From Staphylococcus phage Machias, in the sequence record MW349128.1: a DNA stretch of 64,000 nt, one strand, 5' to 3'. This document shows positions 46,990-47,150 of the stretch, one piece after another. Position 1 is the first letter of the stretch. Each line of letters begins with the position of its first letter. Below the pieces are notes generated by a model. That model made no database searches. It worked only from the letters and a program-made list of their open reading frames with translations, and had not been told where the DNA came from. The position numbers and the translations under genes are program-made.

Positions 46990-47150
46990 TCACAAAATAA
47001 AAAGATATGAGAGTCGCCTGCGGTCAGCGGGAGACGATAAACGGGTGATAAGCTAATGTCTGATTAGCTTTACAAGGAGTGAGAAGGATCCTTCTCACGT
47101 TAGTCACTGAACCAAGTGTATTTTATACAAGGTCTTGCCTTTATATTTAA
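46990..47150 (+). ncRNA. Candidate omega RNA (reRNA) scaffold / IStron 3' region
   Basis: Locally GC-rich block immediately 3' of tnpB with stems CCUGC-GGUCA-GCGGG, AAGCUAAU-GUCUG-AUUAGCUU, GUGAGAAGG-AUC-CCUUCUCAC. Confidence 0.45.

Follow-up and report, generated by a model that had tools for sequence, protein, structure and literature searches.

A group I intron carrying tnpB in a virion-protein gene

We analysed a stretch of 64,000 nucleotides (nt), hereafter the window, of the Staphylococcus jumbo phage Machias (record MW349128.1), with a focus on a GC-rich block that directly follows a tnpB gene. The TnpB encoded in the window was 100% identical to the Machias protein annotated as 'transposase', identifying Machias as the source of the window. 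The block forms the right end of an insert that, judged by sequence, carries the defining parts of an IStron: a group I intron core, tnpB, an enclosing inverted repeat, and borders that coincide with splice sites. An earlier note on this DNA had proposed that the block is a TnpB omega RNA guided by the downstream exon. The features of the locus are as follows.

42085-45525, plus strand: exon 1 of a virion-protein gene (homolog of S6_1390 and MarsHill gp199), ending ...AAUUUAGAU at a codon boundary
45526-47178, plus strand: whole IStron-like insert, 1653 bp, comprising group I intron, tnpB and predicted omega-RNA scaffold
45519-45701, plus strand: group I intron core P1-P9 with P, Q, R and S elements, from Rfam Intron_gpI and motifs read directly
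45703-45715, plus strand: 5' arm of a long-range inverted repeat, UUGUAUAAAAUAU, 13 bp with 47118-47130, just 3' of P9
45741-45776, plus strand: hairpin over the tnpB ribosome-binding site, CCUAA...UUAGG, minimum free energy (MFE) -13.2 kcal/mol, z = -4.5
45785-46987, plus strand: tnpB, predicted RNA-guided nuclease of 400 aa, from Pfam domains; stop codon 46985-46987
47179-48702, plus strand: exon 2 of the same virion-protein gene
47179-47198, plus strand: predicted guide AUGAAUAGAACUAAUCUGAU, the first 20 nt of exon 2

A blastn comparison showed that the insert interrupts a gene that is uninterrupted in phages S6 (S6_1390) and MarsHill (gp199), where window position 45525 abuts 47179 directly. 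Measured against these vacant sites, its removal restored the host open reading frame (ORF) exactly, and its borders coincide with the predicted splice sites: joining exons 1 and 2 gave an ORF of 1654 aa with the same junction as the S6 protein (NINLD followed by MNRTN). For annotation this would mean that the 'separate' ORFs of 1171 aa and 507 aa are a single gene and that the 'transposase' is an intron-borne nuclease. The insert is preceded by U (...UUAGAU) and its last base is G. No target duplication was found at 45526-47178, nor any tnpA or tnpA fragment within it. The same vacant alleles place the end of the element at 47178, 3 nt short of the 47181 assumed in the earlier note, so the predicted guide, drawn from the first bases of exon 2 as that note supposed, would begin three bases earlier, with AUGAAUAGAAC.

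The intron core lies within the first ~180 nt of the insert, with AAUUGCUGG, AAUCAGCAUC, GUUCAACGACUAAAUA and GAUAUAGUC as its P, Q, R and S elements. The Rfam model Intron_gpI aligned over its full length (1-253) at 45519-45701 with 42.5 bits (E 7.9e-10; gathering score 50) when just 291 nt were searched; it was missed at E<=10 in a 2.2-kb scan and at the gathering score in the whole window. Phage LY01 carries two copies of the element at other sites, the measured copy being 87% identical over the element, and these bear on P1: in Machias the exon end AGAU and the UG that follows pair with CAGUCU, giving a U.G pair at the 5' splice site, and the LY01 copies have exon GGAU with internal guide CAGUCC, a compensatory change. 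The catalytic core is therefore already whole before tnpB begins and does not depend on the GC-rich block for its completion.

TnpB contained the Pfam domains HTH_OrfB_IS605, OrfB_IS605 and Cas12f1-like_TNB. Its RuvC residues D215, E303 and D387 and its CxxC..CxxC zinc finger aligned with those of ISDra2 TnpB (8BF8/8EXA, E about 1e-20). Among 29 TnpB relatives D215, D387 and the four cysteines were invariant and E303 nearly so; by these alignments the RuvC triad is intact. The ratio of nonsynonymous to synonymous divergence (dN/dS) between the three Staphylococcus-phage copies was 0.10-0.14, at a dS of 0.5-0.68, which indicates that tnpB is under purifying selection. Relatives show a similar arrangement of anti-Shine-Dalgarno and Shine-Dalgarno sequences before tnpB, and by analogy with other intron-encoded nuclease genes the hairpin at 45741-45776 is likely a translational gate on tnpB. 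Two further TnpB paralogs of Machias (P0004, P0005) are encoded outside the window; their genomic position was sought and not found.

Fold, covariation and tnpB linkage of the right-end RNA

The switch in base composition that the earlier note described after the tnpB stop is real: GC content was 0.47 at 47000-47099 (0.37 and 0.36 in overlapping intervals) against 0.16-0.32 in tnpB and 0.15-0.28 downstream, and in 50-nt bins counted from the stop it was 0.46, 0.40 and 0.38, then 0.22. The 201 nt from 46985 to 47185 folded with an MFE of -52.4 kcal/mol (z = -3.9), and 0 of 200 dinucleotide shuffles were as stable. The conserved RNA lies on the tnpB strand at 47007-47178, from the tnpB 3' end (stop 46987) to the end of the element; the span of 46990-47150 given earlier is structured, but the RNA reaches further 3'. 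Both hairpins spelled out in that note are present, and a third stem (stem 1) was found beside them; the 9-bp stem of the note (hairpin D) realistically has 8 bp and a GAUC loop because a ninth pair would leave a loop of 2 nt. The parts of the RNA are listed below.

47013-47035, plus strand: stem 1 ('nexus'-like), GUC.CCUGC[GGUCA]GCGGG.GAC, with loop GUC 47023-47025 as the proposed first pseudoknot strand (PK-1)
47036-47043, plus strand: near-invariant single strand GAUAAACG, invariant columns in alignments A1 and A3
47044-47113, plus strand: multi-branch domain closed by helix 2, containing the optional hairpin, GGAG, hairpin D and GUUAGUCAC (47099-47107)
47050-47057/47063-47070, plus strand: optional hairpin AAGCUAAU/AUUAGCUU
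47079-47098, plus strand: hairpin D, GUGAGAAG(G)/(C)CUUCUCAC, realistically 8 bp with a GAUC loop
47118-47130, plus strand: 3' arm of the long-range inverted repeat, with an alternative local 5-bp hairpin, 47116-47120/47124-47128
47130-47168, plus strand: terminal stem-loop GUCUUG..UUUAUAU/AUAUAAA..CAAGAC, fold z = -3.7, adjoining the right end
47167-47178, plus strand: conserved tail UUAACAAGACAG, invariant columns, ending in the terminal G of the intron

Helix 2 joins 47044-47047 to 47110-47113, with 3 bp (GGU/ACC) in the window copy, and the optional hairpin is missing from 5 of the 12 aligned right ends (L005, L007, L012, L014 and L158). In the terminal hairpin the LY01 copies differ compensatorily (UUUAGAU/AUCUAAA), and relatives have an equivalent long stem with an internal loop. 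CAAGAC occurs as a direct repeat, at 47161-47166 in the 3' strand of the terminal stem and at 47171-47176 in the tail, so the 5' strand GUCUUG could pair with either copy; alternative pairing and a recombinase site are candidate roles for the repeat, which has an analogue in GACGG...GACGG of relatives. A promoter and terminator scan of this AT-rich DNA gave 26 promoter-like sites (17.6 +/- 4.1 expected) and 0 terminators.

Relatives of TnpB were collected by a search for homologous proteins and their encoding contigs, and a later alignment-based scan added 160 loci. The contig-placed relatives, at 36-48% protein identity and in AT-rich, phage-like contexts, all had the same layout, with group I R and S motifs (S alone where the upstream sequence was short or diverged) 110-240 nt before the start codon and an RNA whose first bases, GUCGCC...GGGAGACGAUAAACG, coincide with the stop codon and whose 3' end reads ...UAACAAGACAG or ...UAAUAAGACGG. 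Covariation was assessed over 12 right ends, using RNAalifold and a count of paired cells in the named structures. Stem 1 was paired in 95/96 cells with 3 compensatory pairs, and hairpin D in 90/93 with compensatory changes in seven of its eight pairs. Helix 2 was paired in 43/48 cells and showed compensatory changes at all four positions (CUCG/CGAG, GACG/CGUC, GACA/UGUC and AACA/UGUU, besides GGU/ACC in the window). For these three helices and the pseudoknot described below, 96.7% of cells were paired and both sides had changed in 15 of 23 pairs; column shuffles gave 79.1% paired, 0/500 reaching the observed value, and slid partners gave 25-55%. G.U pairs were frequent (U13.G23 in 10/12 sequences, others in hairpin D). 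Read from the opposite strand they would become C-A mismatches, so the constraint lies on the sense strand alone, which is what an RNA would show. Between the three Staphylococcus-phage copies the right ends were 91-92.5% identical, with 47014-47073 100% identical, and hairpin D changed in a compensatory manner from GUGAGAAG/CUUCUCAC to GUGAGAGA/UCUCUUAC and GUACAGAG/CUCUAUAC.

The block 46988-47178 had 2 matching places in 50,697 phage records, both of them LY01 tnpB elements, and its core motif occurred once in the window. In contrast, the 5' ~150 nt of the insert, i.e. the intron core, had 84 matching places in five related jumbo phages (LY01 31, AH12 20, PB50 13, Madawaska 11, MarsHill 9), in genes for gyrase (gyrB-like), RNA polymerase and prohead protease. 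Two introns of this family lie in the window itself, both after ...GGU and with G as last base, and both terminate in a hairpin and UAACAUAAAUG, similar to the IStron tail:

4632-4808, plus strand: ORF-less group I intron of the IStron-core family, 177 nt
4825-4974, plus strand: ORF-less group I intron of the IStron-core family, 150 nt

The block was sought in both and is absent; by this distribution it goes with tnpB and not with the intron family. As side observations, the five-phage clade is full of one miniature group I intron family, and a mini-exon of 16 nt (4809-4824) lies between the two ORF-less introns in the beta' gene of the virion RNA polymerase; S6 has neither of these introns and PB50 the second alone.

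Beyond the intron-bearing relatives, ~40 intron-less TnpB loci (22-27% identity, many of them GC-rich; L173-L239) had the stem-1 geometry and a UAAACG motif at the tnpB stop, followed ~155-165 nt downstream by AAGUCAA, where the IStron family has AAGACAG. A covariance model (R1) built on the 5' two-thirds of the block matched the window once, the untrained family members L165 and L167 at about 1e-17, and four of the intron-less loci (E 0.002-0.005), the hit lying precisely at the stop codon in every one of these four. These matches mark the block as a divergent member of an RNA generally found after tnpB. Exact 15-mer scans of viral and genome collections gave chance matches alone, none with the extended motif, and a degenerate 31-mer had no match in metagenome or viral contigs. 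Linkage to tnpB, covariation and the stem-1 motif after intron-less tnpB genes all favour the omega-RNA reading of the earlier note, and we consider it quite probable that 45526-47178 in phage Machias is an IStron without TnpA and 47007-47178 its omega-RNA scaffold.

Guide, alternative folds and rival explanations

Conservation among relatives ends at the terminal G 47178 and 12/12 of the 3' flanks differ, the expectation for a guide copied from the insertion site. With a guide length taken over from other TnpBs, the predicted guide matched the vacant MarsHill allele at 20/20 positions, the site (TTAGAT followed by ATGAATAGAACTAATCTGAT) being identical over 30 + 30 nt, and the vacant S6 allele with 2 mismatches; the aim at intron-less alleles suggested in the earlier note thus has a perfect vacant target. 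On the 5' side, the three Staphylococcus-phage copies are flanked by TTAGAT, GCGGAT and CCGGAT. Conversely, the window holds the vacant sites of both LY01 copies, with 3/20 and 1/20 guide mismatches, respectively:

53382/53383, plus strand: vacant LY01 target, GCTGAT followed by GAATATCATGAA..., in ORF 48802-54045
1925/1924, minus strand: vacant LY01 target, CCGGAT followed by ACAGTTTGGATT..., in ORF 530-3517

The guide of the second copy (LY01b) would therefore match the Machias allele at 19/20 positions. Across Machias and LY01 there are three or more insertion sites; the occupied genes differ between the two phages, and the corresponding sites are vacant in sister phages.

Three further pairings involve the right end. 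The inverted repeat 45703-45715/47118-47130 encloses tnpB and the GC-rich block, and when the 75 nt that follow the S element were compared with the right end, the best duplex fell at the same position in 11/12 loci, with differing sequences (e.g. UUGCUUAUUAGA/UCUAAUAAGCAA, UUGUAAUAUA.../...UAUAUUACAA and UCGUGUAAUACG/CGUAUUAUACGA). It corresponds to the inverted-repeat stem around the ORF region, combined with a local repeat, that Tourasse et al. give as an IStron trait (PMC4227781). A pseudoknot of 3 bp may join loop GUC 47023-47025 (PK-1) to tail GAC 47174-47176 (PK-2); 36/36 cells were paired, with GUU/AAC in L157 and L158 and pairing in 12/12 sequences. We regard this loop-tail pseudoknot as plausible, not proven. 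Lastly, we propose a P9.0 between tail CA 47176-47177 and J7/9 UG 45679-45680, with J7/9 nGUG accompanying an ACAG tail in 9 loci and UACG/UACA an ACGG tail in 3 loci. Position -8 of the tail (column 216 of alignment A1, window 47171; C/U) also covaries with J7/9 position 2 (window 45678; G/A), changing from G-C to A-U in three ...ACGG elements, which may be coincidence because the three are one clade.

As the pseudoknot and P9.0 share tail bases, the RNA could serve either the guide-RNA fold or recognition of the 3' splice site. In CboIStron of Clostridium botulinum the first stem-loop ('nexus') forms a pseudoknot with the 3' end, PK-2 overlaps the 3' splice-site determinants, and PK-1 mutations raise splicing 7-fold (10.1101/2023.11.20.567912; PMC13521648); splicing there needs no more of the right end than its terminal 18 nt (PMC13521648), while cleavage needs at least ~174 nt. 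We propose that the Machias RNA likewise has two mutually exclusive folds, intron or guide RNA, set by the pseudoknot and the 13-bp enclosing repeat.

From these features we infer the following course, in which RNA processing and binding, recognition of a target-adjacent motif (TAM), cleavage, splicing and homing are all predicted steps. The host gene would be transcribed through the element and the transcript would take either fold. In the intron fold, 45703-45715 would pair with 47118-47130, looping out tnpB and the GC-rich block and bringing the terminal hairpin and tail to the core at 45519-45701, where CA 47176-47177 would pair with J7/9. Splicing at 45525/45526 and 47178/47179 would then produce the mRNA for the 1654-aa virion protein and cut the scaffold from its guide. 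In the guide-RNA fold, stem 1, the helix-2 domain, the local hairpin and the terminal stem-loop would form the TnpB-binding scaffold, the pseudoknot of GUC 47023-47025 and GAC 47174-47176 would mask the 3' splice site, and the next ~16-20 nt (AUGAAUAGAACUAAUCUGAU) would serve as guide. TnpB may then cut the intron-less allele (...UUAGAU followed by AUGAAUAGAAC...) of a co-infecting relative beside an RGAT-like motif, and the cut allele would acquire the element on being repaired from the IStron-bearing genome (homing).

Several observations weigh against this account. Rfam 15 scans of 46940-47210 and 45300-47500 at E<=10 matched the block to no curated RNA family, omega RNAs included; the sole link to a named RNA family is indirect, through the distant, intron-less locus L216 (1904-2068), which matched Rfam HgcC weakly (28 bits, below threshold). 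Helix 2 has just 3 bp in the window, where an alternative register (GGUGAU/GUCACU) is predicted. The pseudoknot has 3 bp, and its sole double change occurs in just two sequences. Among the larger group of intron-less loci the tail stays constant although the middle base of the loop varies, which leaves a U.U in the GGUCU loci. The shared ...RGAU flank fits the P1 pairing equally well, and the ORF-less introns also follow GGU, so RGAT may be either a TAM or merely the P1 partner. The element ends (GAT...ACAG) fit neither IStron group A nor group B. With no TnpA present, spread to new sites is unaccounted for, and the DNA of the phage is presumed to be substituted with deoxyuridine (dU), which could affect TAM and target recognition (10.1101/2020.12.14.422802).

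Among the rival explanations, the best surviving one accepts a genuine TnpB-bound RNA and denies homing, taking TnpB mainly for an RNA-binding regulator (a repressor of splicing or a control on the virion gene) or else the element for a vertically inherited relic. TnpB binding alone represses CboIStron splicing (10.1101/2023.11.20.567912), and the dosage of a late structural gene could be tuned by the choice to splice or not. Without TnpA there is also no excision that would need repair, and the target DNA is presumed to contain dU. We think this unlikely all the same. In TldR proteins, the known nuclease-dead regulators derived from TnpB, the RuvC and zinc-finger residues are lost, whereas here 29 relatives keep both (nearly) unchanged and tnpB shows a dN/dS of ~0.1. 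Moreover, Machias and LY01 carry the element in different genes, the sister sites are vacant and some guide matches are near-perfect, as one would expect if a homing element were actively spreading.

A second rival, that the block is group I intron periphery only, was named in the earlier note as what would refute its reading, and it is partly true of the last ~60 nt: the 3' arm of the inverted repeat, the terminal hairpin and the tail also take part in the intron fold, through the long-range repeat and the P9.0-like covariation of J7/9 and tail, and the ORF-less Machias introns end in a similar hairpin and UAACAUAAAUG. Against it, the GC-rich part, 47013-47113, shares with tnpB the loop that the long-range repeat closes, the family's ORF-less introns lack it, and its first motif also follows tnpB in intron-less elements; in CboIStron, splicing requires the terminal 18 nt of the right end only (PMC13521648). 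As an explanation of the whole block we consider it very improbable. Least likely of all, the structures would be DNA-level transposon-end signals for a TnpA acting in trans, an idea suggested by the subterminal hairpins of IS200/IS605 right ends, the short direct repeats of IS607 ends and the doubled CAAGAC (GACGG...GACGG in relatives), yet tnpA was absent from ~16 related loci, the many G.U pairs point to a strand-specific, RNA-like constraint, neither the window junctions nor those of LY01 have the IS607-type shared dinucleotide that a serine recombinase needs, and the published TnpA requires the terminal ~39 nt only (PMC13521648), which leaves 170 nt of conservation unexplained.

The scaffold reading is thus the one we prefer. 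Its extension, in which the TnpB-only IStrons of lytic jumbo phages are working RNA-guided homing introns with the full switch and spread, is advanced tentatively and in our view falls a little short of probable. If true, a cassette of reduced core, tnpB and scaffold would re-program itself from any 3' exon, cut vacant alleles (such as that of MarsHill, 20/20) and spread by repair, possibly also excluding the neighbouring markers of a competitor, and a three-way RNA switch (repeat or local hairpin; pseudoknot or P9.0) would set the choice between splicing and guide. The principle itself is already known; the value of this locus is experimental access to RNA-guided intron homing between cultivable phages. 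The conflict between intron and guide RNA in IStrons has so far been dissected solely in clostridial elements put into E. coli; here the architecture is transposase-free and is found in lytic Staphylococcus jumbo phages that can be cultivated, within structural and polymerase-like genes. A 2026 review raised the idea that intron homing could spread IStrons lacking TnpA (PMC13565253), and the vacant sites of sister phages, one of them a perfect guide match, make that conjecture directly testable. The locus also offers a compact TnpB (400 aa) and a defined scaffold of ~170 nt from an AT-rich phage with presumably dU-containing DNA, and its covarying alternative pairings predict mutations that would shift the balance between splicing and guide formation.

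Elsewhere in the window, on the plus strand, lies a tRNA cluster (5434-6039), in which Rfam recognised three tRNAs (5435-5504, 5858-5929, 5937-6039) and ARAGORN made two calls, of which one has an odd anticodon loop. Of the Rfam tRNAs, the third (5937-6039) measures 103 nt and may contain an insertion.

Comparison with known IStrons, TnpB systems and phage introns

IStrons of group A are inserted after TTGAT, ATTAT or TTTAT and end in TCAG, and those of group B follow GG and end in CGG (PMC4227781). The window and LY01 copies follow (T/C)(A/G)GAT, have U at the 5' splice site and end in ACAG. Left ends of the metagenomic relatives were assigned by ORF continuity, which fixes the reading frame alone (for L013 and L014, by visual inspection of the alignment only); on this basis L005 and L007 fit group B (TGGG followed by U in the reading-frame test), L012 has the same TGGG flank and a CGG end, and L157 is ambiguous. 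In thirteen of the 160 added TnpB loci, 10 of them IMG/VR viral contigs, the group I core motifs R and S lie shortly before tnpB:

L166, L171, L217, L243-L245, L248, L258, L269, L278, L281, L300 and L305: loci with R and S motifs upstream of tnpB

Judged by these loci, IStrons of several types are probably widespread among phages, if seldom described. Candidate ends resembling group A were seen in L244 and L245 (GAUGUCAG, ~150 nt past the tnpB stop) and in L248 (GGUUCAG, ~100 nt past it). Phage IStrons are known from the C. botulinum phages c-st and D-1873 (PMC4227781). A TnpB locus of Clostridium phage c-st was tried as a comparison and rejected, being an ordinary IS605-like element with no intron core. 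The description of Machias and MarsHill reports many introns and homing endonucleases (10.1101/2020.12.14.422802); as the words 'transposase' and 'IS605' are absent from it, the TnpB element is unreported there, and a literature search found no paper tying TnpB or IStrons to lytic jumbo phages.

CboIStron, an IS607-type element of group B, resembles the window element in having a 5' group I intron (IA2-type) with tnpB inside it (10.1101/2023.11.20.567912; PMC13521648). Compared by architecture, from published descriptions, the two RNAs share a right end of ~170-220 nt that in the window would likewise be both omega-RNA scaffold and 3' splice site, and a long AU-rich repeat around the ORF; the pseudoknot of CboIStron between the first stem-loop and the 3' end, which overlaps splice-site bases, has a proposed counterpart in the window RNA. 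The likeness is also seen in the metagenomic relatives L005, L007 and L012, with their TGGG insertion site and CGG end. The window element differs in the absence of tnpA, the lytic jumbo phage host and a much reduced intron core (about 180 nt), and it follows ...RGAU, has the canonical U.G at its 5' splice site and terminates in ACAG, whereas CboIStron follows GG, has a G at that splice site and ends in CGG.

CdISt1 of Clostridioides difficile was reportedly described by Braun in 2000. Like the window element, this IS605-type, group A IStron (CdISt1/CdiIStron) has a 5' exon ending in U, an insertion site ending in GAT (TTGAT), a ...CAG end and no target duplication, and most CdISt1 copies have no intact TnpA (PMC4227781). 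It differs from the window element, as group A does, in its TCAG end and a GC-balanced stem of 6-10 bp, against ACAG, an AU-rich stem of 13 bp (group B-like) and no tnpA remnant. CsISt1 of Clostridium sporogenes (Tourasse 2014) shares with it a TnpB-only content and a CAG end that departs from the group B consensus, but is bacterial, follows AG and obeys the shared-dinucleotide logic of IS607, where the window junctions share none.

Outside the IStrons, the ISDra2 TnpB-omega RNA complex (8BF8/8EXA/8H1J) has a homologous TnpB with the same catalytic residues and a scaffold that lies between the 3' end of tnpB and the element's right end. HgcC-type RNAs (Rfam RF00062) follow archaeal and bacterial tnpB genes, though the HgcC model had no match to the window block, and the intron-less relatives share its stem 1, UAAACG motif and AAGNCAR end. 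Unlike the window element, the ISDra2 and HgcC-type systems lack an intron, have a right end of TCAA type and usually a TnpA partner; nor is the element an autonomous IS200/IS605 or IS607 transposon, as it lacks a TnpA (Y1 HUH or serine recombinase).

The remaining likeness is to the introns of phages with homing endonucleases, such as T4 td/I-TevI, Twort and the K-like Staphylococcus phages, and the intron of the relative L007 is ~75% identical to K-like phage introns. In both cases a self-splicing intron, as predicted here, lies in an essential or structural gene, carries its nuclease ORF in a peripheral loop with the ribosome-binding site in a hairpin, and would be expected to spread through double-strand-break repair in co-infection. 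In contrast to the protein homing endonucleases, the window nuclease is predicted to be RNA-guided and to take its specificity from the 3' exon; since that specificity would be copied automatically, one cassette could serve any insertion site.

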